Shown one piece after another: positions 13,132-41,090 of a stretch of DNA of 64,000 nt (positions are counted from its first letter, which is position 1; each line of letters opens with the position of its first letter). A model generated the notes under the pieces. That model had not been told where the DNA came from. It worked only from the letters and a program-made list of their open reading frames with translations, and ran no database searches. Position numbers and translations under genes: made by a program. This DNA is from Deltaproteobacteria bacterium. Its GTDB lineage: Bacteria > Desulfobacterota > Binatia > UBA9968 > JAJDTQ01. The stretch is from assembly GCA_028818755.1 (NCBI GenBank), contig JAPPNF010000148.1, forward strand, positions 5,514 through 69,513, read 5' to 3'.

Positions 13132-13449
13132 ATGATCGCAATGATTTATACAACTGAACATATCGCCTCTATCCTCAAGAGCGCTCGCAAGGCCCGGGGT
13201 TTGAGCCAGCGCGCGCTCAGCGCCAAGGTCGGCGTGCCACAAAGCCATCTCTCGAAAGTAGAGAAAGGCGCGGTCGATCTAAGGGTGTCCAGCCTCGTGG
13301 AACTCGCCCGTGCCCTTGATCTGGAGCTTATGCTCGTTCCGCGCAAATCTGCCCCCGCCGTAAACGCGCTTGTCCACGCCCTGCCCATAAGTCGGGAAAC
13401 CGAAACTTCACGACCAGCTTATGCCCTGGATGAGGAAGACGATGGCTGA
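13132..13449 (+). CDS. hipB: XRE-family HTH antitoxin (HipB-like)
   Basis: RKARGLSQRALSAKVGVPQSHLSKVEKG HTH; overlaps the hipA start. Confidence 0.85.
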   Translation: MIAMIYTTEHIASILKSARKARGLSQRALSAKVGVPQSHLSKVEKGAVDLRVSSLVELARALDLELMLVPRKSAPAVNALVHALPISRETETSRPAYALDEEDDG

Positions 13450-14656
13450 CGTTGCCGTCCTCAACGTCCTCCTTTACGGTGCGCCCATCGGTACACTGAC
13501 GCGCGTGGCCGGTGACCGCACGCTCTTCTCATTCAACGAGGACTACATCGCCGACAAAGACCGCCCCGTCCTCGGCCTCGGCTTCAAGGACCGTCTCGGG
13601 GAGCTGATCACCGACTTCAGGCCCACGCAGACCAAGTTGTTGCCTTTCTTCTCCAACATGCTGCCCGAAGGACACATGCGAAGCTATCTCGCTGAGCGCG
13701 CCGGCGTGAATCCCGCACGTGAATTCTTCCTGCTGTGGGTACTGGGCAGCGACCTTCCGGGAGCTGTCACCATCACGCCCGCGGAGGGAGAGGCTTGGCC
13801 GTCCGACGCGGCTGATGCTGGGCGTGGTCGTGACCGATACGACCATGCCCTGCGGTTTTCGCTCGCCGGCGTGCAACTAAAGTTTTCGGCCATTGAAGCG
13901 GCAAGAGGCGGGCTGACCATTCCAGCCAAGGGCGTAGGTGGATCCTGGATCGTCAAGTTGCCCTCCCGGGCGTTCGAGGGCGTGTCCGAAAACGAATACG
14001 CGATGATGACGCTCGCCCGAATGATCGGGATGGACGTGCCAGCACTTCGCCTCGTCAGTATAGATGCCATCGGGAACCTCCCGGAAGGGATCGGTGCGTT
14101 GAAAGGACAGGCGCTCGCCGTCCACCGCTTCGACCGGCTCTCGGACGGCACCCCCGTGCACATCGAGGATTTCGCCCAGATCTTCGGCGTCTATCCCGAC
14201 GACAAATACAAAAGAGGCAATGCGCGCAGTATCGCCAACGTTATCGCCGCCGAAGGCAGCGAGGCGGACATTGCCGAATTCATCCGCCGGCTCACCTTCA
14301 ACACCCTGATCGGCAATGCCGACATGCACCTCAAGAACTGGTCGATGATCTATCCCGACGGCCGTCGTGCGGCGCTCGCGCCGGCCTATGATCTGGTCTC
14401 GACGATTCCGTACATCCCGGACCAATTGGCCGCACTCAACGTCAGCCGCACCAAGCGCTTTGATGAGTTCTCCGAAGACGAGCTTTCCCACCTTGCCGCC
14501 AAGGCGCGCCTGCCGTCAAAGCTGGTATTGGACACGGCTCGCGAAACCGTAGCGCTCTTCCATCAGTACTGGGGTGTCGCAAAGGCTGACCTGCCACTTG
14601 CCGAAGAAGTCATCGAGGCCGTCGAAAGGCGCCTGAAGACGATACCGATTGCTTGA
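13442..14656 (+). CDS. hipA: HipA-family Ser/Thr kinase toxin
   Basis: FFSNMLPEG, SLAGVQLK, NADMHLKNWS, LAPAYDL. Confidence 0.93.
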   Translation: MADVAVLNVLLYGAPIGTLTRVAGDRTLFSFNEDYIADKDRPVLGLGFKDRLGELITDFRPTQTKLLPFFSNMLPEGHMRSYLAERAGVNPAREFFLLWVLGSDLPGAVTITPAEGEAWPSDAADAGRGRDRYDHALRFSLAGVQLKFSAIEAARGGLTIPAKGVGGSWIVKLPSRAFEGVSENEYAMMTLARMIGMDVPALRLVSIDAIGNLPEGIGALKGQALAVHRFDRLSDGTPVHIEDFAQIFGVYPDDKYKRGNARSIANVIAAEGSEADIAEFIRRLTFNTLIGNADMHLKNWSMIYPDGRRAALAPAYDLVSTIPYIPDQLAALNVSRTKRFDEFSEDELSHLAAKARLPSKLVLDTARETVALFHQYWGVAKADLPLAEEVIEAVERRLKTIPIA

Positions 14657-28498: not shown

Positions 28499-29596
28499 TT
28501 ATGCCGCGGGCTTCACGTAAACGTTGGGATCCATCCGCGACTCGGCTCCCAGCCTGGTCATGTCGGACTCGAACATCTCGCGAATGTACTCCGGCTGGTC
28601 ATAGTACTCGATCTGGTTCCCGCCGGACTTCACGTCCTTGTCGACCTTGGAGATGTCTCCGTAGCCCTCGCCCATGCTGTGCTTGATGCCGCCGAAACGC
28701 AAGGGCAGATAGCGCGCGCCGGTGGGGCCGAGGTTGAAGTGCTGGTGGAACATCATCTCCGGCGGCACGAACACGCTGCCGTCCTGCCAGTCGTAGCGCT
28801 TGGGCTCCTCGCCTTCCCACCAGAACAACGAGAAACCCTGCCCCTTGATGATGATGACGTTGAAGCCCGGCCCGTGGCGGTGGGCCTTCTTGTAGGTCCC
28901 CACGGGGAACTCGGAGATGTGCGCCGCCATGGTGCCGTCGCACATTTCGAGAAAGACGTTCTTGCCGCCCGCGCCCCGCTCCTTCCACTCCTGGAGGTTG
29001 AAAGTGCGGGTGTCGGCGATGAAGTTGGTCTCCCAGATCCGGCCGGGATGCTGCGTGCCCTGGCTGGAGAAAAAGTCCGGCCGCCCGTCGAAGCGGTCCC
29101 GGAAGTCGTAGGGCGTGTTGAAGATAAAGTCGTCGTTGTGGAACAGGCTGAAGACGATGGGCATGTTGTTGACCGAGAACAGCCGCGCCGGCTTGTCGCC
29201 CTGGCCGTTGAAGTGCTGGTGATGCACGTTCAACGGGACCGAAATGAGGCTCCCTTCCTGCCACTCGAAGGTCTGCTTGGCGCCGTTGTCGTTCCAGATG
29301 GTGGTGGCGCCACGGCCCTGCACCACCAGGATCAGCTCCTCGTAGAGATGGCGCATGGGGTTGAGGCTCTTGCCCGGCGCGATCTCGACGATGTAGGCGC
29401 CCGTGGCATCGCCCGCTCCCTCCATGTTGAACAGGGTCCCGTCACCGCCCATGCGGTCCCACCATTTTAGTGGCACCTCCTTCAGGTCCTTGATGAAGAA
29501 AGTATCGACGACGTCGACTCCCTCGCCCTTCTGCCACTTGTAGAAATAGGGGATGTTGTCCATCGTGGTTTCGATCTCTTGCGCCGGCTTGGCCAT
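28499..29596 (-). CDS. Bicupin protein (gentisate dioxygenase-like cupin family)
   Basis: Two cupin motifs: RHLYEE...HHQHFN and AHRHGPG...FHQHFN. Confidence 0.85.
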   Translation of the reverse strand: MAKPAQEIETTMDNIPYFYKWQKGEGVDVVDTFFIKDLKEVPLKWWDRMGGDGTLFNMEGAGDATGAYIVEIAPGKSLNPMRHLYEELILVVQGRGATTIWNDNGAKQTFEWQEGSLISVPLNVHHQHFNGQGDKPARLFSVNNMPIVFSLFHNDDFIFNTPYDFRDRFDGRPDFFSSQGTQHPGRIWETNFIADTRTFNLQEWKERGAGGKNVFLEMCDGTMAAHISEFPVGTYKKAHRHGPGFNVIIIKGQGFSLFWWEGEEPKRYDWQDGSVFVPPEMMFHQHFNLGPTGARYLPLRFGGIKHSMGEGYGDISKVDKDVKSGGNQIEYYDQPEYIREMFESDMTRLGAESRMDPNVYVKPAA

Positions 29597-29711
29597 GGGC
29601 TCCTCCCAATCTCAATGAAATTCAAGGGGTATCTCTTACATGAGGCGTGTTGAAAATACAACCAACGTCGCGGCGAGGCCCACGGGCAAACACCCGCGAT
29701 CACAGACCGTC

Positions 29712-29750
29712 TTGACATACAATAACTACTAATTTATTTGTGAATTAGTA
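29712..29750 (+). promoter_or_regulatory. fic promoter (-35 TTGACA) overlapped by a 24-bp palindrome
   Basis: TTGACA at 29712-29717; TACTAATT-TATTTGTG-AATTAGTA at 29727-29750. Confidence 0.7.
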
Positions 29751-29767
29751 TTTGTTGGTTTCGGACG

Positions 29768-31102
29768 ATGAAGATCCCACGAACCGCCCCAAGTCTCGGC
29801 GAGATCCTCTCGAACTTGAAAGAGCCCGACCGGATGGCTGCGTTGCTCACGCGTGAGGGGATCGGTCCCTCGCAGGGGAAGAAGTACCGGCATTGGGAAA
29901 ACCTCAGTCGCATCCAGCCCCCGACCGGACTCTCATCCGAGGAATGGTGGGCGGCCGTGAAATTCGCCCGCCACCAGACGCGCAGGGCCATTCCGCTGAA
30001 GGACAAGGACGGTGCCTTCTTCACCTACTGCCTCGCGGATCCCGTTCTCGAATCCCTCTACGAAATCGACCGGGACGTAATCGGGAGAATCACGACAAAT
30101 GACCAACTCCTGAACCCACAAACCAGGGACCGCTATGTCGTGAGTTCACTGATCGAGGAGGCCATCACCTCAAGCCAGCTCGAAGGGGCGTCAACAACGC
30201 GCGACGCGGCAAAGCAAATGATTCGCTCCGGCCGGAACCCGGTGAATCGAAGCGAGAGGATGATCCTCAACAACTATCGGGCGATCCAACGGGTCAAGGA
30301 ACTCACGGCACAACCCCTAACCCCCGAGATCGTATTCACAATCCACGAAACGCTGGTCGAAGGAACCCTCGAGGAGGACCCGGTCGGCAACCATCTGCGG
30401 AAACCGGACGACGGTGTCGCCGTCTACCACGACAGGGACGGAACCCTGTTCCATACTCCCCCGCCCGCACGGGAAATCGCCCGTCGCATGGCCGCCATGT
30501 GTGACTTCGCGAACAAGACCCGGACGGACACCTTTCTGCATCCGATCCTGAAGGCGATTATCCTCCATTTCTGGCTTGCCTACGACCATCCGTTCGTCGA
30601 CGGCAACGGCAGGACCGCCAGGGCGTTGTTTTACTGGTCGGTACTCTCACGGGATTTCTGGATGTTCGAGTTTCTTTCGATTTCGGCCGTCATCCGGAGA
30701 TCGCCCACCAGGTATGCCAAGTCCTTCCTCTACACCGAGACCGACGAGAACGATCTGACCTACTTTCTCTTGGCTCAGCTTCAAGTCATCCGGCAGGCCA
30801 TCAAGGCCTTGTACGCATACCTCGACAAGAAAGCGCTGGAAATTCGAAGCATCGAGCAGATTCTTCAATCCCACGTCTCGATCAACCACCGGCAACTGGC
30901 GCTGCTCGGTCATGCCCTGCGACACCCAGGGGTGCGCTACACGATAGACACACACAAGAAAACTCACGGAATCACCTATCAGACGGCTCGGACCGACCTT
31001 CTCGACCTTGCATCACGGAAACTGCTCGTCAGGACGAAGACGGGGCGGTTTTTCTCCTTCACCGCGCCCGCGGACCTGGCGAAGCGGCTGAAGGTCTTGT
31101 GA
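29768..31102 (+). CDS. Fic-family protein (class II-like) with C-terminal winged HTH
   Basis: HPFVDGNGRTAR catalytic motif, SSQLEG inhibitory motif, HGITYQTARTDLLDL wHTH. Confidence 0.92.
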   Translation: MKIPRTAPSLGEILSNLKEPDRMAALLTREGIGPSQGKKYRHWENLSRIQPPTGLSSEEWWAAVKFARHQTRRAIPLKDKDGAFFTYCLADPVLESLYEIDRDVIGRITTNDQLLNPQTRDRYVVSSLIEEAITSSQLEGASTTRDAAKQMIRSGRNPVNRSERMILNNYRAIQRVKELTAQPLTPEIVFTIHETLVEGTLEEDPVGNHLRKPDDGVAVYHDRDGTLFHTPPPAREIARRMAAMCDFANKTRTDTFLHPILKAIILHFWLAYDHPFVDGNGRTARALFYWSVLSRDFWMFEFLSISAVIRRSPTRYAKSFLYTETDENDLTYFLLAQLQVIRQAIKALYAYLDKKALEIRSIEQILQSHVSINHRQLALLGHALRHPGVRYTIDTHKKTHGITYQTARTDLLDLASRKLLVRTKTGRFFSFTAPADLAKRLKVL

Positions 31103-31107
31103 TCAAT

Positions 31108-31131
31108 TACTAATTTATAAACAAATTAGTA
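31108..31131. repeat. Second copy of the 24-bp palindrome, 5 bp after the fic stop
   Basis: TACTAATTT-ATAAAC-AAATTAGTA. Confidence 0.85.
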
Positions 31132-31175
31132 GCAAGCTAGTATTTTGGAAGGCACGCGGCCCGGCACACCCTTGT

Positions 31176-31205
31176 TTGACACCCCGGATCACGCTTCCCT
31201 ATAGT
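31176..31205 (+). promoter_or_regulatory. Sigma70-like promoter of the M24 peptidase cluster
   Basis: TTGACA-18 bp-TATAGT. Confidence 0.6.
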
Positions 31206-31251
31206 CAGTGCCTTCACGGCATCGTAAACCTTATCCCCAGGGAGTTCACAC

Positions 31252-32439
31252 ATGTGGATCAACGAACCGCGGGCGAAGCGGGTTCTGGCCGAACGGGACC
31301 TGGACGGCTTGATGGCCGCCACCAACATTCCCAACGTCTTCTACCTGAGCGGCGTGTGGCGCCGGCAGGACATCGCCGCCATCGTCACCCGGGACGCCGT
31401 GACCGCGCCCTGGATCGTGATCCCCCGGGGCGAGGTGGACTACATGGTGGACACGGTGCCGCCGGCAGGGGTGGTCACCTACGGCACCTTCCATCGGGTG
31501 ATGGAGGACAACGGGCCGCTGACACCCCGCGAGCAGCGTATCCGCGAGATCGGCATCGACCTGGAGCCGATGAAGGATTTCTTCGAGGGCATCGTCCGGA
31601 CGCTGGAGAGCGCGGGCCTCGACCGCGGCCGGCTCGGCTACGACGAACGGGGCCTGGACCCGGCGCTGACGGAGCGGCTCAAGGAGCGGTTTCCGCACCT
31701 AGAACTGGTGCCGGCCATGTCTGCGTTCCGCGAGATCCGCATGGTCAAGAGCGCCGCCGAGATCGAGCGCATGACCGAGGCGGTGCGCATCACCGAGCAG
31801 TCCATCTACGAGGCCGCCCACGAGGCCCGGGAAGGCATGACCGAGGCGGAGATGTGCCTCGCCTTCGACCTGGGCCAGGTGCGGCGCGGCGCCGAGCCCA
31901 ACATGAACCACGTGGGCTTTGGCCGAAGCGCCGCCCTGGGCATGACCAACGTGCCCGAAGACACCCTCAAGGTCGGCGACATGATCCGCTTCGACGTCGG
32001 ATGCCTCTACAAGGGGTATCTCACCGACATGTCGCGGACCTTTTCGTTCGGCCCGCCGGACGACAAATTCTTCAGATATTACAACGCGATACTGAAAGGC
32101 CAAGATCTGGCCCTCGACCTCATCAAACCGGGCAAGGTCGCCTCGGAGATCTTCAACGAAACGGTGGCGGAAGTTCGCGATACAGGCATCCCGCACTACG
32201 CCCGCCAGCACGTGGGACACGGCATCGGCCTGGGCCTCGGCGGCTACGATCGCCCCACCATCTCCCCGGGAGACGACACGCCTCTCGAGGCCGACATGGT
32301 GCTGTGCATCGAGACCCCGTACTACGAGATGGGCTGGGGCAGCGTCCAGGTGGAAGACATGATCGTCGTCACCGAGGACGGCTACCGCCGCCTCACGTCC
32401 GTGCCCCGGCACCTCCAGGTGCTGGAGCCTCGCTCGTGA
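31252..32439 (+). CDS. Xaa-Pro aminopeptidase family (M24) peptidase
   Basis: Metal ligands D, D, H, E, E (FDVG, TDMSR, GHGIG, IETP, VED). Confidence 0.9.
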   Translation: MWINEPRAKRVLAERDLDGLMAATNIPNVFYLSGVWRRQDIAAIVTRDAVTAPWIVIPRGEVDYMVDTVPPAGVVTYGTFHRVMEDNGPLTPREQRIREIGIDLEPMKDFFEGIVRTLESAGLDRGRLGYDERGLDPALTERLKERFPHLELVPAMSAFREIRMVKSAAEIERMTEAVRITEQSIYEAAHEAREGMTEAEMCLAFDLGQVRRGAEPNMNHVGFGRSAALGMTNVPEDTLKVGDMIRFDVGCLYKGYLTDMSRTFSFGPPDDKFFRYYNAILKGQDLALDLIKPGKVASEIFNETVAEVRDTGIPHYARQHVGHGIGLGLGGYDRPTISPGDDTPLEADMVLCIETPYYEMGWGSVQVEDMIVVTEDGYRRLTSVPRHLQVLEPRS

Positions 32440-32624: not shown

Positions 32625-33893
32625 ATGAGCCACCTCACCGGTCTCTCCTGTATCCGCTGCAACGCGTCCTTCGGCATCGAGCCCCGCTTCGACGGGTGCC
32701 CGGAATGCCGGCGGGAAGCGCCCGCCAACCTGACGCCCCGGTACGACATCGACGCCGCGGCCGGGGGCTTCTCCGTCGAGTCGCTACGCGACCGGCCGCC
32801 CGGCATGCGCCGCTACCGCGAGTTGCTCCCCCCGGACATCCGGGACGCCGCGACCCTGGGTGAAGGGGAGACTCCGTTGCTCCACTGCGAGCGCTACGGC
32901 GGCCGGCTCGGGCTCGAGCGGCTGTTCCTGAAAGACGAATCACAGAACCCGTCGGGCTCCTTCAAGGATCGGCTGGCATTCGCCGCGATGGCGATGGCGA
33001 AGCGGTTCGAGGCCAGGGCGGTGGGGGTCAGCTCCACCGGCAACGCCGGCGCCGCGGCCGCGGCCTACGCCGCCCGCGCCGGGCTCCCGTGCATCGTCCT
33101 CACCGTCCAGGGGGCGGCGTCCGCCATCGTCACCCAGATGCAGGCCTACGGCGCCATGGTGGTGGCCACGCGCACCAAGGCCGACCGCTGGAAGCTGTTG
33201 CAGACTGGGGTCGCCGAGTGGGGCTGGTATCCGACGTCGCCCTATTTCGGGCCGCCGGTGGGCAGCAACCCCTACGGCGTGGACGGGTACAAGACCCTCG
33301 CCTACGAGGTATGCGAACAGATGGACTGGGAGGCGCCTGACTGGTGCGTGCTGCCGGTGGCCTACGGCGACGCGCTGTTCGGCATGTGGAAGGGCTTCGG
33401 CGAGCTGGCGCGACTGGGCGTGATCCGCAAGCGGCCCCGCATGGTGGCGGCGGAGATGGCCGGCTGCCTCGCCGCCGCGCTGGCTTCCGGCGAGGACGCA
33501 ATACCGGAGATCCCGGCGCCCACGCCCTACGTGGCCGGGTCCATCAGCGTCAACCAGAGCACCTATCAGGCTCTGCACGCGCTGCGCGCCTCCGGTGGGC
33601 CCGCGGTGTTGGCACGGAACGACGAGTTGCTGGGCCTGCAACGGGATCTGGCCGCGGACGAAGGCGTCTACGCCGAGCCGTCGTCCCTCGCCGCCCTTGC
33701 GGCAGTAGGCCGCCTGTGCCAGGAAGGGCGAATCGGCGGAAGCGACACTGTCGTCGTGGTGAACACCGCCAGCGGCCTCAAGGACACCGCCGCCACCGCC
33801 GGGGCCGCACCGGAGATCCCCATCGTGGACGGCCACACCGCACAATTCCTGGCAACCCTGCGAGATGCCTACGGCTATCGCGCGGAGACGTAA
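32625..33893 (+). CDS. Threonine synthase-like PLP-dependent enzyme
   Basis: N-terminal CxxC..CxxC, LGEGETPL, NPSGSFKDR, SSTGNAG, TASGLKD. Confidence 0.88.
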   Translation: MSHLTGLSCIRCNASFGIEPRFDGCPECRREAPANLTPRYDIDAAAGGFSVESLRDRPPGMRRYRELLPPDIRDAATLGEGETPLLHCERYGGRLGLERLFLKDESQNPSGSFKDRLAFAAMAMAKRFEARAVGVSSTGNAGAAAAAYAARAGLPCIVLTVQGAASAIVTQMQAYGAMVVATRTKADRWKLLQTGVAEWGWYPTSPYFGPPVGSNPYGVDGYKTLAYEVCEQMDWEAPDWCVLPVAYGDALFGMWKGFGELARLGVIRKRPRMVAAEMAGCLAAALASGEDAIPEIPAPTPYVAGSISVNQSTYQALHALRASGGPAVLARNDELLGLQRDLAADEGVYAEPSSLAALAAVGRLCQEGRIGGSDTVVVVNTASGLKDTAATAGAAPEIPIVDGHTAQFLATLRDAYGYRAET

Positions 33894-33904
33894 AGCCCCG
33901 AAAG

Positions 33905-33931
33905 CGTCATTCCCGCGAAAGCGGGAATCCA
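33905..33931. repeat. Repeat family B (dRS3-like ATTCCC-N8-GGGAAT)
   Basis: CGTCATTCCCGCGAAAGCGGGAATCCA. Confidence 0.9.
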
Positions 33932-33975
33932 CCGGCGGTATGGGGTGGAAATCGAAACGAGGCTGACGGAGATCC

Positions 33976-34980
33976 ATGAAATTCAGCATCCAGCTCCCCA
34001 CCTGCACCGAGGGCCTGGTCAACCCGGTGCCGTTCGTGGACCCGGAGGCGTTCATCCACATGGCCCAGGAGGCCGAACGGCTGGGGTACGACGCGGTGTG
34101 GGGCAACGACCACATCACCCCGGCGGCCTACGCCCGGCAGAAATGGCCCGAGCCGCCCAACTTCTACGAGGTCCTGGTGACCCTTGCCACGGTGGGAGCC
34201 CGCACCACGCGCATCCGGCTGGGCACGGCCGTGCTGGTGTTGCCGCTGCGCGACCCGGTGCTGCTGGCCAAGCAGGTGAGCACCCTGGACCGGTTCACCG
34301 GCGGGCGGGTGATCCTGGGCACCGGCATCGGCGCCTACCGGGAGGAGTTCGACGCCCAGTGGCCGCGGCGAAAGGCCGAGCGGCGCGGCGACCTGCTGGA
34401 CGAAAGCCTGGAGGCGCTGCAATCCCTGTTCCGGGACGCCGACGCCACCTACGAGGGCCGGCACATCGCCTTCCGGAACATCGCCATGCGCCCCAAGCCG
34501 GTGCAAGACCCGCTGCCCATCTTCGTGGGCGGCCACAACGAAGCCATGATCCGGCGCGCGGCCCAACGCGGAAAGGGGTGGCTGCCCGGCTGGCGTCCTT
34601 TCGAGCAGATCGTGGAGCGCGTGGCGCTGCTGCGCCGTCTCACCGAGGAGGCCGGGCGGGAAACCCGCGCCGTGGAGGCTTGCTCCCAGTTCACCCTGTG
34701 CATCGGCAAGACCGTGGAAGAGGCCCGGGCGCGCTACCGCAAGACCGGCATGGTCCAGCACCGGGTCTCCCTGGCCCACACCGGCCGGGACCCGGCCCTG
34801 GCCGAGACACACAACCTCATCGGCAGCCCGGCCAGCATCCTGGAGCAGGTGGACTTCCTGGAAAAGGCCGGAATTGACCACATCTGCGCCTTGCAGTTCC
34901 CATCGGACACGGGCGCGGAGATGCTGGAGCAGATCCAGTGGCTGGCCGAGGAGGTGATGAAGCCGTTCAACGGCGGCTAG
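33976..34980 (+). CDS. LLM-class (F420/flavin) oxidoreductase
   Basis: AERLGYDAVWGNDH, RLGTAVLVLP, PKPVQ. Confidence 0.9.
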   Translation: MKFSIQLPTCTEGLVNPVPFVDPEAFIHMAQEAERLGYDAVWGNDHITPAAYARQKWPEPPNFYEVLVTLATVGARTTRIRLGTAVLVLPLRDPVLLAKQVSTLDRFTGGRVILGTGIGAYREEFDAQWPRRKAERRGDLLDESLEALQSLFRDADATYEGRHIAFRNIAMRPKPVQDPLPIFVGGHNEAMIRRAAQRGKGWLPGWRPFEQIVERVALLRRLTEEAGRETRAVEACSQFTLCIGKTVEEARARYRKTGMVQHRVSLAHTGRDPALAETHNLIGSPASILEQVDFLEKAGIDHICALQFPSDTGAEMLEQIQWLAEEVMKPFNGG

Positions 34981-34987
34981 CGCCCCA

Positions 34988-35120
34988 ATGGCGTCCTTCG
35001 ACTTCGCTTCGCTACGCTCAGGACGAACGGTTTGGAAACTCTGTGGACTGGCGGGGTTGCTGCGGAACACAAAGGTTCCGTTCGTCCTGAGCGTAGCGAA
35101 GCGAAGTCGAAGGACGCCAT
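34988..35120. repeat. Repeat family A, perfect 43-bp inverted arms, 47-bp spacer
   Basis: ATGGCGTCCTTCGACTTCGCTTCGCTACGCTCAGGACGAACGG and its reverse complement. Confidence 0.95.
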
Positions 35121-35159
35121 GTAAATATCACTGGCAGTCGGTGACTGCAGCGCCCCTCA

Positions 35160-35189
35160 GTCATTTCCGGGCAAGCGGGAATACAGGGG
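35160..35189. repeat. Degenerate family B repeat
   Basis: GTCATTTCCGGGCAAGCGGGAATACAGGGG versus consensus GTCATTCCCGCGAAAGCGGGAATCCAGGGG. Confidence 0.65.
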
Positions 35190-35208
35190 CGGGGATGGAA
35201 AGTAGTTC

Positions 35209-36171
35209 ATGACACAACCAAAGACTGCGGTCGGCTACCTGCTGCCTACTCGGGAAATCGTGATGGCGCAAGCCGTGCCGGACCTGAGCCGCATCATGCG
35301 ACTGGCGGAACGGGCCGAGGAACTCGGTTTCGACTCCATCTGGGTGGGGGACAGCATCCTGGCGCGTCCGCGCCTGGAACCGCTGACCACGCTGGCCGCG
35401 GCGGCCGCGCGCACCAGCCGCGTGAAGCTGGGCACCGCCGTGCTTCTCCCGGCCTTGCGCCACCCCGTCGTCCTCGCCAACGAGCTGGCCAACCTCGACC
35501 TCGTCTGCAACGGCCGGCTGATCCTGGGCCTGGGCATCGCCGGCAACAACAACAGCATCGAGCGAGAGTTCACCGCCTGCGGCGTTGATTTCAAGCATCG
35601 CATCGGCATCTTCGAAGAGGGCGTGGCCCTCATGAGGAGGCTGTGGACGGAACCCGAGGTGACCTTTCACGGGCGCCACTTCCACCTTGACGGCGTGCGC
35701 CTGGGCCTTCGCCCGGCCCAGTCCTCGGGCATACCGCTGTGGCTCGCCGGCGGCGTGGACAACGCGCTGCGCCGGGTGCTGCGGCTGGCCGACGGCTGGT
35801 TCCCGCTGCCCAACTCCCCGGAAAGCTTCGCCCGCAACTGGGAGCGGATCGAATCCCTGGCCCAGGAGATGGGGCACGGCGCCGCCCGGCTCGCCCGCGC
35901 CGTCTACGTCACCGTGAACCTGAACGACGACACCGCCCAGGCCGAGCGCGAGATGCGGTCGTTTATGGAGAGCTACTACAAGGTGTCCTACGAAACGATG
36001 GTGGCCTTGCAGCCCCCGTGCAACGGTCCGGCCGCCCGATGCGTCGAATGGCTCCAGGCATTCGTCGAGCGGGGTGCCGAGACCATCGTCGTGCGCTTCG
36101 GCGCCCCGGACCAGACGGCCCAGCAGGAACGCTTCGCCGCCGAAGTGCTGCCCGCCCTCCGCGTTGCATAG
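35209..36171 (+). CDS. LLM-class flavin-dependent oxidoreductase
   Basis: AEELGFDSIWVGDS, KLGTAVLLPALRHP. Confidence 0.9.
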   Translation: MTQPKTAVGYLLPTREIVMAQAVPDLSRIMRLAERAEELGFDSIWVGDSILARPRLEPLTTLAAAAARTSRVKLGTAVLLPALRHPVVLANELANLDLVCNGRLILGLGIAGNNNSIEREFTACGVDFKHRIGIFEEGVALMRRLWTEPEVTFHGRHFHLDGVRLGLRPAQSSGIPLWLAGGVDNALRRVLRLADGWFPLPNSPESFARNWERIESLAQEMGHGAARLARAVYVTVNLNDDTAQAEREMRSFMESYYKVSYETMVALQPPCNGPAARCVEWLQAFVERGAETIVVRFGAPDQTAQQERFAAEVLPALRVA

Positions 36172-36330
36172 TACCTCTCCATACGTACAGTACGCGCTTG
36201 GCCACCCTGTCACCGAAGGGTTCATGAGGCTTCACCCGCGTGAGTGATGCGAGCCTCTTGCCACCCCGGAATCGCGTGTTATGCTTCTCGGATCGGTAGC
36301 TTGAGCTTCTGTCAAGACTGCGGAGTTCCT

Positions 36331-37815
36331 TTGGCTACGGCCCACCACGATGCCAAGACGCTCGGTGCATACTTCACCCCGGAGGTAGTGGCGGGTGCGT
36401 TGGTGCGATGGGCTGTTCGGGACCCTGGCGACCTCCTCCTCGATCCATCGAGCGGCGATGGCCGCTTTGTTGCACGTCATCCGAACAGCGTCGGCATCGA
36501 ACGGGATCCGGCGTCGGTCGCACAAGCGTCGGCGCGGGCGCCGAATGCCACACTCGTAAACAGCGATTTCTTCACGTGGGCGTCTGAAGACCACCGGCAG
36601 TTCGACTGCGCAGCGGGTAATCCCCCGTTCATTAGGTATCAACGGTTCAACGGCCCGACCCGCCAAGCCGCACTCGACTACTGTCGCCGCCTGGGTGTCA
36701 TCTTCAGCGGCTTGTCGTCATCATGGGCGCCGTTTATCGTGGCGGCGGCCAGCAAGCTTCGTTCGGGTGGTCGGATCGCATTCGTCGTACCGGCGGAGAT
36801 CGGTCATGCGCCTTACGCCACGCCGCTCATGGACTACCTTCTAGCCAACTTCGGTTCCGTGCACGTGGTCGCCATCAGAGAAAAGATCTTTCCACAGCTC
36901 TCGGAGGACTGCTGGCTGCTGTTCGCAGACAGAGCCGGTTGTCAGGCGGACGGTATTCGTTTGTCGAAGCTCGAACGATTCGACCCCAGTGGCCTACCGC
37001 CAGCGGTGTCGGAACTGATATCGGTCGAGGAGTGGCGTGTCAGATGGGGTGGCAGGCTGCGGCCGTTCCTATTGCCGGAGCGCATCCGGAGCCTCTATAA
37101 ACGCATTAAGACCGACTCCGGGGCCGTCCAGCTCGGCCGAATCGCGCAGATCGGTATCGGATACGTCAGCGGCGCGAACCACTTCTTTCATCTACGGCCT
37201 TCCGACGTGGAGCGATTCCGGATACCCGACAAGTTCCTTGTGCCGTCGATCAGGAACAGTCGGTATGTCACCGGCACCGAGATAAACGATGCCGACATCG
37301 AGCGGTGGACCGCGAAAGACGAGCCCGTGTTCCTTTTGCGAATCCCACCCCGCACACAGGTGCCCGCTACGGTCCAGGCGTATCTCGACACCGAGGAAGG
37401 ACATCGTGCAAGAGGCTCCTACAAGTGCCGCAACCGCAAACCATGGTACACCGTTCCCGACGTTCGGCGGCCTGCGTTTGTGCTCACGTACATGAGCGGC
37501 AGATCCCCGACGCTCGTCGCGAATCGGAGCAGATGCACCTGCACGAATGCACTCTTGGCAGTCGATCTCCGGCCCGAACTGTTCGACGGTGGTAGCGACT
37601 TCTGCGGCCAACGACTGTCAGCAGCGTGGGGTTCACTCGTCGGGCGGCTGAGTTGCGAGATCGAAGGACATCCACTGGGGGGCGGGATGCTCAAGCTCGA
37701 ACCGGGAGAAGCGCGCAATGTGCTCCTGGCTCCGGACGCGGTGATCGAAAAACCTGAGAGTGCCCTGCTCGACGAAGGGATCGAAGTGATGCGCCAATGG
37801 AGGCACGTCGCGTGA
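36331..37815 (+). CDS. N6-adenine DNA methyltransferase (gamma class)
   Basis: GAYFTP, motif I DPSSGDGRF, motif IV NPPF, C-terminal GGGMLKLEP; TTG start with GGAG. Confidence 0.9.
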   Translation: MATAHHDAKTLGAYFTPEVVAGALVRWAVRDPGDLLLDPSSGDGRFVARHPNSVGIERDPASVAQASARAPNATLVNSDFFTWASEDHRQFDCAAGNPPFIRYQRFNGPTRQAALDYCRRLGVIFSGLSSSWAPFIVAAASKLRSGGRIAFVVPAEIGHAPYATPLMDYLLANFGSVHVVAIREKIFPQLSEDCWLLFADRAGCQADGIRLSKLERFDPSGLPPAVSELISVEEWRVRWGGRLRPFLLPERIRSLYKRIKTDSGAVQLGRIAQIGIGYVSGANHFFHLRPSDVERFRIPDKFLVPSIRNSRYVTGTEINDADIERWTAKDEPVFLLRIPPRTQVPATVQAYLDTEEGHRARGSYKCRNRKPWYTVPDVRRPAFVLTYMSGRSPTLVANRSRCTCTNALLAVDLRPELFDGGSDFCGQRLSAAWGSLVGRLSCEIEGHPLGGGMLKLEPGEARNVLLAPDAVIEKPESALLDEGIEVMRQWRHVA

Positions 37816-38705
37816 GTGCCTGCGAGTGGATATCGCTCAGGTCGGCCCTTTCACACTTCGTCGCGTTCCGCGGGGCACCACAGAGCCAGCGACACATCAA
37901 GCCGCTTCATTGGTACGTCGCCTGCCGGCTCGTCGTAGAAGGTGGCTTCCACCCAGACGAGATCATGCCACGCCCGCCGTTCCGGGTGGACGGGAGCCCC
38001 AGACAGCCGGTGTTGATCCATGATCCGAGCCTCGGCGGTGCTGGTGAACGGACTGTCTACGGCGGTCTCAAGACCAAGGACGTCGACGTTGTCGTGACCA
38101 AGGAAGGGATCGGGCCGGTGCTCGCGGTTTCCTGCAAAGGGGCGATTGGTGCGTTCCGGAATCTCACGAATCGGATGGAAGAAGCGGTCGGCGACTGCAC
38201 CAATCTTCACATCGCCTATCCGCCGCTCGTGTGCGGTTACTTGTTCATCATGCGGGCAAACCGCGCTGAGGAAATCGGGTTGGTCCGCCAACAGGAGTCA
38301 TCGCAGCAGCCCGTTCGGCCAGTCGCGGAGAACGATGTGGCCCTTGACGAAAGCGGCCAGCCAGTCGCGGCAGTTCGACGATTCCATGCGGCGCTTCGCG
38401 AATTGGCCGACAGACGCGGCATTCGAGACGACGTTAGCCGTTACGAAGCGATCTCACTCGCGCTCGCTTCGACCCGGTCGGAGGAGGTCGGAGAGATCGT
38501 CAGCGAGTTCCCCGATCCAGGCAGTGCGCTGCGGTTCGAACGGTTCTTCGATACGGTATACCGGCAATACGACGAACGATTCGTCTACGCCGCTCCCGAC
38601 CTCAGGAAGGTGACGGCTCGCAAGGAGTGGGCGAAGGCGTCCGAAGCCTTCCGTACAACAACGCTGACCAAGATGGACTACGAACCGAGAAGCGACGAGT
38701 CTTGA
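37812..38705 (+). CDS. Putative type II restriction endonuclease (PD-(D/E)XK fold, XhoI/PaeR7I-like)
   Basis: GTGA overlap with the MTase; KDVDVVV...AVSCK...NLTNRMEEAVG. Confidence 0.7.
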   Translation: MSACEWISLRSALSHFVAFRGAPQSQRHIKPLHWYVACRLVVEGGFHPDEIMPRPPFRVDGSPRQPVLIHDPSLGGAGERTVYGGLKTKDVDVVVTKEGIGPVLAVSCKGAIGAFRNLTNRMEEAVGDCTNLHIAYPPLVCGYLFIMRANRAEEIGLVRQQESSQQPVRPVAENDVALDESGQPVAAVRRFHAALRELADRRGIRDDVSRYEAISLALASTRSEEVGEIVSEFPDPGSALRFERFFDTVYRQYDERFVYAAPDLRKVTARKEWAKASEAFRTTTLTKMDYEPRSDES

Positions 38706-38739
38706 TCACGACCCGGAACGGCACCTTCTAAGAGAACGA

Positions 38740-39789
38740 ATGAGCGACATCCAGTTCGACCTCGGCTTCAGCTCTCGGACGGTAGCCACCTACCCCCTAG
38801 CCCGGCGCATCGCCATCATCAAGAGCGCGGAGGCGTTGGGGTTCGACCGCCTGTGGCATTCCAACGAGAAGTTCGGCCGCGACATGGTGGCCAACATGAC
38901 CCTGAGCGCGGCCCAAACCGAACGCATCGGCATCGGCGCCGCGGTCACCGACCCCTACAGCGTCCATCCCGCCCTTACCGCGGCCGCCATGGCCACGGTG
39001 GACGACATCTCCTCCGGCCGCGTCATCGTCGGCATCGGCGCCGGCGGCTCCGGCTTTCCCGCCATGGGCATCCAGCGTAAGCAGCCCGTGGCGGCCACGG
39101 CCGACGCCATCGCCATCATGCGCGGCATGTGGGCAGGGAAGCCCGCGACCGTGGACGGCAAGGTCGTGAGCGTCCGCAGCGGCGTCCTGGGGTTCAAGGC
39201 CCGCCCCGACATCCGCATCGTCATCGCCACCCGCGGACCGGCGATGTTCCGCCTGGCCGGCCGGGTCGCCGACGGCGCCATGATCGCCACCATGGCTACT
39301 CCCGAGGGCGTCGGCATCGCCCGGGACTTCGTCCGGCAGGGTGCGCAACAGGCCGGCCGCGACCCCGACGACATCGAAGTCATCTCACGCGTCGACACCT
39401 GCGTCGACCGCGACCGCGACAAGGCCCGCGCCGGCGTCAAGCAGATGATCGCGTTCCTGTTGTGGAGCAGCTACCCCAACCGCGACTTCGTCACCCAGTT
39501 GGGCATGGAGGTCCCGGCCGAACTGGAGGCTCTGATCGCCAAGCGGGACTACGAACTCATGTTCGAGGCCGGCCCCCTGGTCCCCGAGGAATTCGTCGAC
39601 GCCTTCGCCTGGGCCGGCACCCCCGAGGAAGTCGCCGCCCAGATCACCCGCATCGCCGAAACGGGCATCCGCCGCTTCGGCACCTGGGTGCTAGCCCCGC
39701 CGGGAGGCGGGATCGAGTCGGTGATTCAGCTCATCGCCGATGAAGTGATGCCAAGAGTGCGGGCGGCAGCAAACCGTCTTCAACGATAG
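38740..39789 (+). CDS. LLM-class oxidoreductase (Mer-like)
   Basis: AEALGFDRLW, VTDPYSVHPALTA, GRVADG, AGTPEE. Confidence 0.9.
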   Translation: MSDIQFDLGFSSRTVATYPLARRIAIIKSAEALGFDRLWHSNEKFGRDMVANMTLSAAQTERIGIGAAVTDPYSVHPALTAAAMATVDDISSGRVIVGIGAGGSGFPAMGIQRKQPVAATADAIAIMRGMWAGKPATVDGKVVSVRSGVLGFKARPDIRIVIATRGPAMFRLAGRVADGAMIATMATPEGVGIARDFVRQGAQQAGRDPDDIEVISRVDTCVDRDRDKARAGVKQMIAFLLWSSYPNRDFVTQLGMEVPAELEALIAKRDYELMFEAGPLVPEEFVDAFAWAGTPEEVAAQITRIAETGIRRFGTWVLAPPGGGIESVIQLIADEVMPRVRAAANRLQR

Positions 39790-39802
39790 GCGAACGACCC
39801 GC

Positions 39803-39928
39803 TTAGCGCCGCCCTTGATCACGCAGTTTTTTCCGGTCCGGATGTCCGAGCTTCACACCTGACCGAAGGCTGCGAATCCCTTCGATCGCGCGTTCCGTCG
39901 CTCCGGAGCCACGCACGCCGGCCGTCAT
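39803..39928 (-). pseudogene. Relic of a Phd/VapB-type antitoxin C-terminus (41 aa)
   Basis: MTAGVRGSGATERAIEGIRSLRSGVKLGHPDRKKLRDQGRR*; no toxin gene follows. Confidence 0.5.
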
Positions 39929-39945
39929 GGTACCACCGCGGGCGG

Positions 39946-41043
39946 CTATCTCATCGTCCCCCCAAACGCTGAAAGGACCATCTCGATCAGAATCCGCGGC
40001 GGCCGGGTCAGCGGATCGGTGACGGGGATGCCGAGTTCGTCCTGGTGCCGCGCGATGGCGGCGGTTACATCGGCGTCGGACATGTTCTCGTGGTTGATCG
40101 TGAGGCCGATGACCTTAGTGTCGGAGAAGGTCTCGATGAGATGGATCTCGTCGGCGGGGTCCGGCATCGGCATGTGTTCAAAGTCGGCGCGATGGACTCG
40201 TGCGGGTGCGTGCTGCAGCACGACGCCGTCGGGGCAGGCGCCACGGAGGATCAAGGCCGAGGTCGGGTAGGCGGGGTGGCTGAGAGCGCCTTGCCCTTCG
40301 ACGATGATCACGTCGGGTTTCTCGGCTTCGAACGCTTCGATGATGGCCGCTTCGAGCTCGCCGGCGCAGAACTGCGAAGGAACAGCGTCGAGGGCGACGC
40401 CGTAGCGGGCTCCCTGGATCAGGCCGGTCTGGCCCGTGCCGATCATGACCGCCTTGAGGCCACAATCATTGAGTGCGCGGGTCAAGACGGTTGCGGTGGT
40501 CCGCTTGCCAACGGAGCAATCGGTGCCGAGGACGGCGATGCGCAGGCAGGCAACCTCCGCGATACGGCCGCTGAAGGTCCGGAGGCTCTCCTTGGCAGAG
40601 GGCTTTCGGACGTCGAGGATTTTCACGTTTCGTGCGGCGCTTGCCGCTACGAACTCCGGGTCGTCGCTCAAGAACTCGTGAAGCCCGTTCACGATGTTCA
40701 TTCCCAGGTCGATGGCCTCAAGCAGGACCTCCCGATCGCGTCTCGACAACATCCCGGTCGCGGGAGCCATTCCGAAGATAAAGTAGTCGGGCGTGGTTCC
40801 GGCGCGCGCCAGTGCATCGGCCAGGTCGCGGCAGATGGGAATACCGTTTGGCGGCTCACCAAGCACGACGCCGGCATCGAGACCGGCCTTCTTGCTGTCG
40901 ATGACCGAAAGGATTTCATAGAGCTCCGAGTGACGGACGAGGCCGTTCGCGGTTTTTCCGTCAATGGCGCCGAAGTTTGCCTCGCAATACACGATTGCCG
41001 TCGCGACTCCTGCCGGGGAATTTGCAATCCTATGAACAGCCAA
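39946..41043 (-). CDS. DUF1611 domain protein (DgcN-like P-loop)
   Basis: GKTANGLVRHS, NGLH, GTDCSVGKRTT, TGQTG, EGQGALSHPAY. Confidence 0.85.
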   Translation of the reverse strand: MAVHRIANSPAGVATAIVYCEANFGAIDGKTANGLVRHSELYEILSVIDSKKAGLDAGVVLGEPPNGIPICRDLADALARAGTTPDYFIFGMAPATGMLSRRDREVLLEAIDLGMNIVNGLHEFLSDDPEFVAASAARNVKILDVRKPSAKESLRTFSGRIAEVACLRIAVLGTDCSVGKRTTATVLTRALNDCGLKAVMIGTGQTGLIQGARYGVALDAVPSQFCAGELEAAIIEAFEAEKPDVIIVEGQGALSHPAYPTSALILRGACPDGVVLQHAPARVHRADFEHMPMPDPADEIHLIETFSDTKVIGLTINHENMSDADVTAAIARHQDELGIPVTDPLTRPPRILIEMVLSAFGGTMR

Positions 41044-41090
41044 AGCGATAATGTTTCCTTTCCGGGCCGCGGCGCGCGGTGTTGATCCGT

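Follow-up and report, generated by a model that had tools for sequence, protein, structure and literature searches.

What reads a palindrome that is present at both ends of a single gene, and what is the second copy for? These questions are raised by a fic gene that lies within a 64,000-nucleotide stretch of DNA (the window) from a deltaproteobacterium of the class Binatia (contig JAPPNF010000148.1 of assembly GCA_028818755.1). The gene encodes a Fic enzyme with a winged helix-turn-helix (wHTH) at its C-terminal end, and almost the same AT-rich sequence stands before its start codon and after its stop codon. The original prediction, made from the sequence of the window, had offered two answers. 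Either Fic binds both sites and silences its own gene by looping, or the sites delimit a single-gene cassette that can be mobilised or inverted by a recombinase. We consider it probable that Fic binds both sites, the upstream site being an operator for autorepression and the downstream site a second operator that has been maintained.

Paired palindromes flanking fic

The fic gene of the window (29768..31102, + strand) begins with an ATG at 29768 and ends with a TGA stop codon at 31100-31102. A TTGACA sequence that resembles the −35 hexamer of a promoter is located at 29712..29717 (+ strand). It is followed at 29727..29750 by the upstream palindrome TACTAATTTATTTGTGAATTAGTA, the putative primary operator (O1), in which the arms TACTAAT and ATTAGTA are separated by a spacer of 10 bp. 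The downstream palindrome TACTAATTTATAAACAAATTAGTA, the candidate second Fic-binding site, has the same arms and again a 10-bp spacer, and is found at 31108..31131, 5 bp past the stop codon. The two palindromes are identical at 19 of 24 positions when compared directly, and at 21 of 24 when one is inverted. The mismatches are confined to the central spacers (TTATTTGTGA and TTATAAACAA), which differ at five of ten positions in the direct comparison and at three of ten in the inverted one. A third half-site in direct orientation, GCTAGTA (31136..31142, + strand), lies 11 bp beyond the right arm of the downstream palindrome. The corresponding element after the upstream palindrome, GTTGGTT (about 29754..29760, + strand), is degenerate and weak in the window. 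Reading of the sequence confirmed the palindromes, their two match counts, the perfect TTGACA and the distance from the stop codon as these were first reported; the further half-site noted at 31137-31148 (CTAGTA...) is the third, direct half-site.

The sites are restricted to fic. Allowing up to two mismatches, the pattern TACTAATT-N8-AATTAGTA matches twice in the window and never in 100 shuffles, and in the whole assembly of 4,935,640 bases it occurs at no place beyond the two that flank fic. The G+C content is 0.48-0.52 at both palindromes, 0.54-0.63 across fic and 0.65-0.73 in the adjacent genes.

We compared 28 genomes of the genus, that of the window and 27 others. Full-length orthologs of Fic with 70-94% identity are present in 19 of the 27 and absent from the other eight, and 20 loci were counted with that of the window included. 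The upstream palindrome is present at all 20, 39-42 bp ahead of the start codon in 19 of them and at −55 in L015. TTGACA precedes it in every case, as TTGACC in L010 and TTGACG in L013, and the upstream third half-site is clear (ATTGGTA or ATTAGTA) in L012, L013, L020 and L022. The downstream palindrome is present at 16 of the 20 loci, overlapping the stop codon in L006 and lying up to 91 bp past it elsewhere. It is missing in L016, L018 and L022, and L013 has a decayed copy only. Divergence at those 16 loci affects the spacers and the adjacent non-coding DNA, whereas the downstream arms still agree with the consensus at 12-14 of 14 positions. The upstream arms are likewise kept while their spacers and flanks diverge and Fic falls to 70% identity. 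In four orthologs (L014, L017, L019 and L021) it is the downstream copy of the two that matches the consensus more closely. A search of the 28 genomes for exact ACTAAT-N9/10-ATTAGT gave 32 occurrences, each of them adjoining fic or one of two relics from which fic has been deleted; the reversed control pattern gave no occurrence in the same genomes.

One genome (G021) has two near-identical fic loci, each with both palindromes, on separate contigs (G021:C1:2762446-2763783 and G021:C8:20105-21442). Contamination of this genome is listed as 9%, and the pair may be strain redundancy in a metagenome-assembled genome, not a duplication.

Covariation of the half-sites with the Fic recognition helix

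The same putative operator is found well beyond the genus. An alignment-based scan gave 278 relatives in reference genomes, spread over many phyla, and at least 567 in metagenomes. Using the family pattern TNNNAAT-N9/10-ATTNNNA, within 250 bp upstream or 200 bp downstream of the gene, we found one or more palindromes at 54 of the 62 non-genus loci that were kept, typically about 40 bp before the start, and at 70 of 80 metagenome loci. The site is TACTAAT-N9/10-ATTAGTA, usually followed 11 bp on by the third direct half-site. At least two sites are present at 30 of the 62 non-genus loci, the second usually being located 44-57 bp or 94-107 bp farther upstream. At several loci of Planctomycetota type the two sites bracket the core promoter, such that the distal arm abuts TTGACA and the proximal arm overlaps TATACT. 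Distal sites that abut the −35 of fic itself are those of L107, L111, L103 and L101. The third half-site is present in 15 of 17 sites located downstream; for those located upstream the figures are 42 of 70 when proximal and only 6 of 32 when distal.

An indication of what binds these sequences comes from the protein. The recognition helix of the window Fic reads ITYQTAR and carries Y404 and Q405. Across phyla, in both genome and metagenome loci, the half-site covaries with the residues at these two positions. YQ is associated with TACTAAT (148 of 180 half-sites). Loci with YA or YG have TAT[T/C]AAT (seven of seven YA loci in the metagenome set), and those with YD have TACCAAT or TACCAAA (four of four half-sites in the genome set and both of two metagenome loci). 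YN goes with TCTCAAT, or with ACTCAAT on a Klebsiella plasmid. HQ is accompanied by half-sites of T[C/G]CTAAT type, FQ by TTC[T/C]AAT type and FP, in metagenome loci, by TTAAAAT. Several of these helix classes recur in both data sets. A similar change is seen within the genus, where Fic of G005 has the substitution Q405E; all three downstream half-sites have changed from A to G and the upstream site has changed in part. Family members in other phyla have unrelated neighbouring genes. Since the half-sites covary with the helix and nothing else is conserved around the genes across phyla, it is very probably the wHTH of Fic that reads its own sites, as judged from comparison of sequences.

The Klebsiella homolog is on the K. 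pneumoniae plasmid NZ_CP084826.1 (L124, about 1088-1120). This Fic has 34% identity and the helix VSYNTAR, and a perfect palindrome ACTCAAT-N10-ATTGAGT is placed about 32 bp before its start, so that the operator design extends to Gammaproteobacterial plasmids. In a phage collection there were only remote relatives of Fic (eight records, best 36% identity).

The protein has the properties expected of an autoinhibited enzyme with a DNA-binding domain. The open reading frame (ORF) at 29768-31102 encodes 444 amino acids, with a match to Pfam Fic at E 5e-21 and to the PADLOC SoFic model at E 3.1e-39 over residues 94-433. It scores 56 bits against a cut-off of 550 with the NCBIfam SoFic equivalog model NF046030, and is a relative of the SoFic family, not an equivalog. 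The catalytic motif HPFVDGNGRTAR occupies residues 274-285 and conforms to HPFx[D/E]GN[G/K]R. An alignment of 57 relatives shows no variation at P275, F276, G279, N280, G281 or R282 and hardly any at H274 and D278. The inhibitory motif SSQLEG (residues 135-140) is invariant in the same relatives save for L138, which is nearly invariant, and in an AlphaFold2 model (predicted local distance difference test, pLDDT, 85.6) it sits at the end of a helix of residues 117-138. The wHTH is located at about residues 374-432 of the model, with helices at 374-385, 393-400 and 404-416 followed by a beta hairpin at 421-432; Pfam gives merely a faint match there to HTH_64 (E 0.17). The intact catalytic motif, the inhibitory (S/T)xxxEG motif and the C-terminal wHTH that had been ascribed to this protein are therefore all present, and by these features it is a class II Fic AMPylase of the SoFic, CccR and CbFic2 type.

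Comparison of the model with known structures is consistent with this assignment. Foldseek aligned it with SoFic (3zcn and 3eqx) over 355-359 columns, with E from 3e-12 to about 1e-11 and a template modelling (TM) score of 0.71 normalised to the target, and it also matches CbFic2 (8cil) and other Fic-wHTH structures. The best sequence match among solved structures is 8cil (E 1.4e-15). The match to 7xux, which from its title and date we take to be CccR, has a TM score of 0.60 normalised to the target and is remote in sequence. A homodimer is predicted with a score of 0.52 against 0.00 for the best control, at least 90% of contacts being the same between runs and the partner pLDDT being at least 79, although similar dimers have been solved and the pass may reflect likeness to them. 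Among proteins of known structure, the calibration mark is attained by 20 of the 30 solved as pairs and by one of the 23 solved as single chains. The predicted interface comprises residues 37-38, 67-71, 89-106 and 254-258, with the main dimerisation helix at about 89-106.

Ahead of the SoFic-like part there is an additional N-terminal domain (residues 1-90, window 29768-30040) that is kept across the subfamily. H42, K65, R68 and F85 are invariant in this domain, and W60 and W61 nearly so. A model of residues 1-96 (pLDDT 81.9) had no informative match in 48,161 chains, the best having Z = 3.6 and a root mean square deviation of 3.5 over 54 residues. The domain could have a sensor or partner-binding role.

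Possible functions of the downstream site

From the sites, their restriction to fic, their conservation and the covariation, all of which are observed, we infer the following mechanism. The upstream site lies between the −35 and the ATG, and because of this position and the precedent of CccR, negative autoregulation is suggested. A Fic homodimer bound to the upstream palindrome would shut off its own promoter, so that an enzyme with toxic potential would limit its own amount to a low level. A third, direct half-site would be presented one helical turn beyond the palindrome. The downstream copy would be a second full composite operator, bound by the same Fic and kept by selection. The sequence data make a second Fic-binding operator the most likely identity of this site. 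That it has been maintained is indicated by the conservation of its arms, by the change in G005 and by its recurrence in distant lineages. The proposal that Fic binds both sites thus draws support from the helix covariation, from the distribution of the sites with fic only and from the co-change of the downstream site in G005; looping is possible, as one of several roles for the downstream site.

The bound downstream site might act in more than one way. It may be an auxiliary operator that raises occupancy of the promoter through cooperative bridging or looping. Downstream copies of operators, such as lac O2 inside lacZ and gal OI, can raise the occupancy of a primary operator by repressor through DNA looping. 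Here, unlike lac and gal, the second site is past the end of the gene, about 1.38 kb off, and at least equals the promoter site in strength. Alternatively, bound protein could be a roadblock or insulator between fic and the following gene, which encodes an M24 peptidase (31252-32439). This option arises because there is no terminator-like site between the two genes; a terminator scan of the interval gave none, and the sole + strand candidate lies inside the ORF at 31025-31044, with a count no better than in shuffles. The third option is control of the neighbouring M24 promoter.

Several observations weigh against a maintained pair of operators for Fic. A scan for consensus promoters at fic found no complete −35/−10 pair. 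The downstream site is dispensable, since four of the 20 orthologs in the genus are without it, and the separation of the two sites varies among orthologs between 1373 and 1476 bp. A layout with two or more sites is common outside the genus (30 of 62 loci), but a copy after the stop codon is rare there, being found at three of 62 loci (L083, L087 and L110) and at two of 80 metagenome loci (L142 and L200). The helix class YE is inconsistent, with TACCAAT in G005 and mostly TACTAAT or TACTATT at other YE loci. The covariation counts come from related genomes that are not independent, so that fewer separate evolutionary events underlie them than they suggest. Formally, the sites could be bound instead by a different repressor whose gene is at another locus. 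Finally, looping would need a higher-order assembly of Fic dimers, and this repressor is not known to tetramerise.

The alternatives can be weighed against the history of the locus. Fic is preceded by a cupin gene (28499-29596, − strand, encoding 365 amino acids) in 18 of 20 loci, and M24 is no more than 1.5 kb downstream in 13 of 20. The neighbouring genes are 87-99% identical, compared with 70-94% for Fic. Some genomes have lost or moved the gene. In G013, which has no fic, cupin and M24 are separated by 162 bp of intergenic DNA, in which the M24 promoter is present but a palindrome is not. The deletion of fic in G025 spared the final 26 bases of the ORF with its stop codon, as well as the downstream site, and the junction falls at a GGACC microhomology. 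What remains in G010 after loss of fic is the TTGACA together with the spacer that followed the stop codon and a downstream site in decay, which is without the third half-site and one base of an arm. G019 retains the upstream site and an internally deleted fic. In G020 fic has moved to a position after M24, and in G012 it is 11 kb off, beside AbiEi-like and PIN genes, with a different Fic gene adjoining cupin. The two relocations suggest that the region acts as a variable spot for defence and toxin-antitoxin genes.

The most serious alternative is that the downstream site chiefly controls the promoter of its neighbours, Fic being a transcription factor for the M24 peptidase gene and the PALP gene beyond it. 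We regard this as rather unlikely. A strong promoter-like site, TTGACA-18-TATAGT (31176..31205, + strand, 11 of 12 consensus matches), is indeed found 45 bp beyond the downstream palindrome, and in L014, L017, L019 and L021 the third half-site of the downstream copy abuts the next −35 (TTAGTA-T-TTGACA type), in parallel with the distal sites of L107, L111, L103 and L101. By eye, no hexamer of TTGACA type separates the site from the start of M24 in G003 (L011), G006 (L013) and G010 (L025), and both deletions of fic left the site ahead of M24. However, the M24 promoter is present in G013 without any palindrome, and the spacing from site to −35 is not conserved, at about 1 bp in those four orthologs compared with about 28 bp in the window, which the idea fits less well. 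Moreover, the gene that follows the site in G014 encodes a periplasmic binding protein instead, the neighbours in other phyla are unrelated, and in G010 the site decays once fic is lost. Control of the neighbour is compatible with a second Fic operator as a further role of the same site.

M24 starts about 35-70 bp after the composite site in G003, G006 and G010. In these genomes it may use the fic promoter or a start within the site.

The downstream copy might instead be a non-functional remnant of a duplicated fic promoter and operator, left for example by the loss of a tandem fic, and this we find improbable. Downstream sites are of the proximal (O1) type in their possession of the third half-site (15 of 17, versus 6 of 32 distal sites), the sequence beyond them is similar to the short leader (TTAGTATTTTGAAAG-type) found after the proximal sites of a sister group, and the site has been lost in four orthologs of the genus. 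The 5' flanks also look alike (GTCTTG...CAAT in the window; CGTCTT...GAAGAC in L017 and L021 compared with L012), a weak hint, taken by eye, that the downstream site arose by duplication of the promoter and operator region. Yet a remnant would not be expected to keep 12-14 of 14 arm positions in 16 lineages whose non-coding flanks no longer align, nor to lie closer to the consensus than the upstream site in four of them. It also fails to account for the change of all three downstream half-sites along with the helix residue in G005, and for the recurrence of sites after the stop codon in the distant L083, L087, L110, L142 and L200.

Recombination sites of tyrosine-recombinase, Xer or dif-like type, mobilising or inverting a single-gene cassette, were the other half of the original prediction, and this we now think very unlikely. 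The G+C content of fic is lower than that of its flanks, the gene is absent from eight of the 27 other genomes and relocated in two, and the segment missing in G013 has a palindrome close to each of its ends. But strand exchange by tyrosine recombinases requires matching central cores, and here the spacers are unlike between the two sites and freely variable among orthologs while the arms are fixed. The end points of the deletions in G025 and G010 are outside the palindromes, and 18 of the 20 loci have fic in the same position, in agreement with vertical descent. A search for an empty site with one palindrome led to that of G013, which holds none. None of the four altered loci, G013, G025, G010 and G019, is the product of recombination between palindromes. 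No joint linking the two palindromes was found in the contigs of four runs (X1, X2, X3 and X18), although contigs drop rare variants and so cannot exclude rare excision or inversion; the joints that are listed in them are internal to cupin or to fic, and their short sides measure 21-37 bases. A Pfam scan of 26 ORFs of at least 180 amino acids between 13.4 and 46.4 kb gave no recombinase or transposase family, with 12 of the 26 being without any Pfam family. Covariation with the Fic helix is not expected of a recombination site. The recombinase-cassette reading is therefore largely refuted.

Least likely of all are RNA hairpins, as structure of the 5' leader and as a 3' terminator or stabiliser: the upstream stretch folds well (−12.3 kcal/mol, z −4.9) and symmetric changes preserve the inverted repeats, but the downstream fold is weak (−6.7 kcal/mol, z −1.25, with 17 of 200 shuffles as good) and lacks a T run preceded by a G+C-rich stem, the sequence of the arms and not merely their pairing is conserved across phyla, the direct third half-site is left unexplained, many homologs have their second site upstream of the −35 and so outside any transcript, and the half-sites covary with protein residues.

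Genomic context and known Fic systems

The fic gene is variably present, lies in a dip of G+C content and has toxin-antitoxin and restriction-modification genes nearby. The M24 gene is followed by a gene for a pyridoxal phosphate-dependent enzyme (PALP, 32625-33893). No families of the type VI secretion system (T6SS) were seen among the 26 ORFs scanned. Nothing comparable to the small inhibitor gene AS1 of E. coli was evident; the intergenic ORFs are mechanical calls of 21-34 amino acids, plus one of 65 amino acids on the opposite strand that extends into the M24 gene. Direct repeats of target DNA bordering the fic segment were considered. The candidate, ACACCCGCGATCAC (29690-29703) compared with 31179-31192, is alike at 12 of 14 positions and was rejected; 53 of 1000 shuffles score as well, and it has no counterpart at any other locus of the genus.

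A number of other features were observed in the region. A gene for a HipA-like kinase toxin is located at 13421-14653, with a match to Pfam HipA_C at E 2.3e-48 and a HipA N-terminal domain. The stretch from the PALP to the DUF1611 genes (33900-41050) varies in content within the genus. In the window it has a gene for an Eco57I-like methyltransferase (36244-37812), and the corresponding stretch of G012 (L121 7000-17200) has the fic ortholog with the AbiEi-like and PIN genes. Several genomes of the genus have cupin paralogs with a single in-frame TGA, which could be selenocysteine or a shared break (for example G025:C3:1252136-1253182, G004:C1:2241102-2242103, G018:C193:43417-44463 and G020:C1:391442-392443). 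For window 28800-32000, 21 runs from 13 studies are listed, and most of the listed holders are labelled sponge metagenomes. Depth in run X3, as derived from contigs only, is about 4-6 times as high for the flanking genes as for fic, which fits several strains that share the flanks without this fic allele. Contigs from an RNA library cover parts of fic; they come from a relative about 88-93% alike and may be DNA carry-over, and so are no proof of expression.

The closest precedent in function is CccR of Yersinia pseudotuberculosis. It represses its own promoter through the palindrome AGATAATCAT-N26-ATGATAATCT, for which dimerisation is required, is toxic through AMPylation, is an effector secreted by a T6SS, and is quoted as having the inhibitory motif (S/T)xxxE(G/N) (PMC9755527). 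Like the Fic studied here, CccR is a class II Fic with an inhibitory helix, a C-terminal HTH and a palindrome in its own promoter, and in CccR the one gene provides both toxin and regulator, as is proposed here. The operators differ. The arms of CccR are 10 bp long and 26 bp apart, at its own −35 and −10, whereas here the arrangement is 7-N9/10-7 with a third direct half-site, and the CccR account consulted mentions no second operator after the gene (PMC9755527).

SoFic of Shewanella oneidensis (SO_4266/MloA), a single-gene anti-phage system in PADLOC, shares the dimerisation helix, the Fic core and the wHTH with the Binatia Fic, which has about 20% identity to it and an extra N-terminal domain of about 90 residues. 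SoFic dimers bind the first 100 bp upstream of their own gene, with the operator sequence left undefined in the account consulted (bioRxiv 10.64898/2026.07.09.737422). Proteins of the SoFic type have been reported as abortive-infection toxins, and E. coli Sofic has a gene for a 47-residue inhibitor downstream (PMC12249575).

CbFic2 of Coxiella burnetii, the protein of structure 8cil, is also a dimer with Fic and wHTH domains, and the published portion consulted describes no cognate operator for it. DNA binding shifts the balance of its AMPylase and deAMPylase activities towards deAMPylation; it binds nonspecific DNA with high affinity, and the target studied is host histone H3 (PMC10628234). 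By analogy, operator-bound Fic may also be restrained catalytically, which is speculation. An extension of this idea to the composite sites seems doubtful at best. A dimer would sit on each palindrome, and a further dimer would bridge the lone third half-sites, so that a repression loop encloses the toxin gene and the operator DNA holds the enzyme harmless. In such a one-gene module the flanks of the gene itself would take the part of 'antitoxin', and release of Fic from the DNA by a trigger, for instance phage infection, would both derepress and activate it.

Self-repression of a single-gene Fic toxin by way of its HTH is thus known, and this locus is not a new class of system. To call it an undescribed system was an overstatement given that autorepression by CccR (PMC9755527) and promoter binding by SoFic (bioRxiv 10.64898/2026.07.09.737422) have already been published. 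New details are the geometry of the operator, a code that is family-wide, the frequency of second operators and the layout that brackets the gene in this genus; in the literature as consulted we saw no description of this operator, of the recognition code or of an operator after fic, and the supplements of the CccR and SoFic papers may add detail on binding sites.

Fic-wHTH enzymes are studied as toxins, as effectors and for their part in phage defence, and their silencing is understood only in part; in the portions of the literature consulted no cognate operator is defined for the SoFic group. The present arrangement raises the questions of whether DNA binding couples silencing to control of the enzyme, and whether the downstream site serves in looping, in blocking read-through or in regulation of the neighbour. 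The locus and its relatives offer an explicit operator, 7-N9/10-7 plus a direct half-site, with a two-residue code that recurs across phyla. The genus provides a natural variant of a common two-operator layout, in which the second operator is placed after the stop codon and the gene is bracketed.

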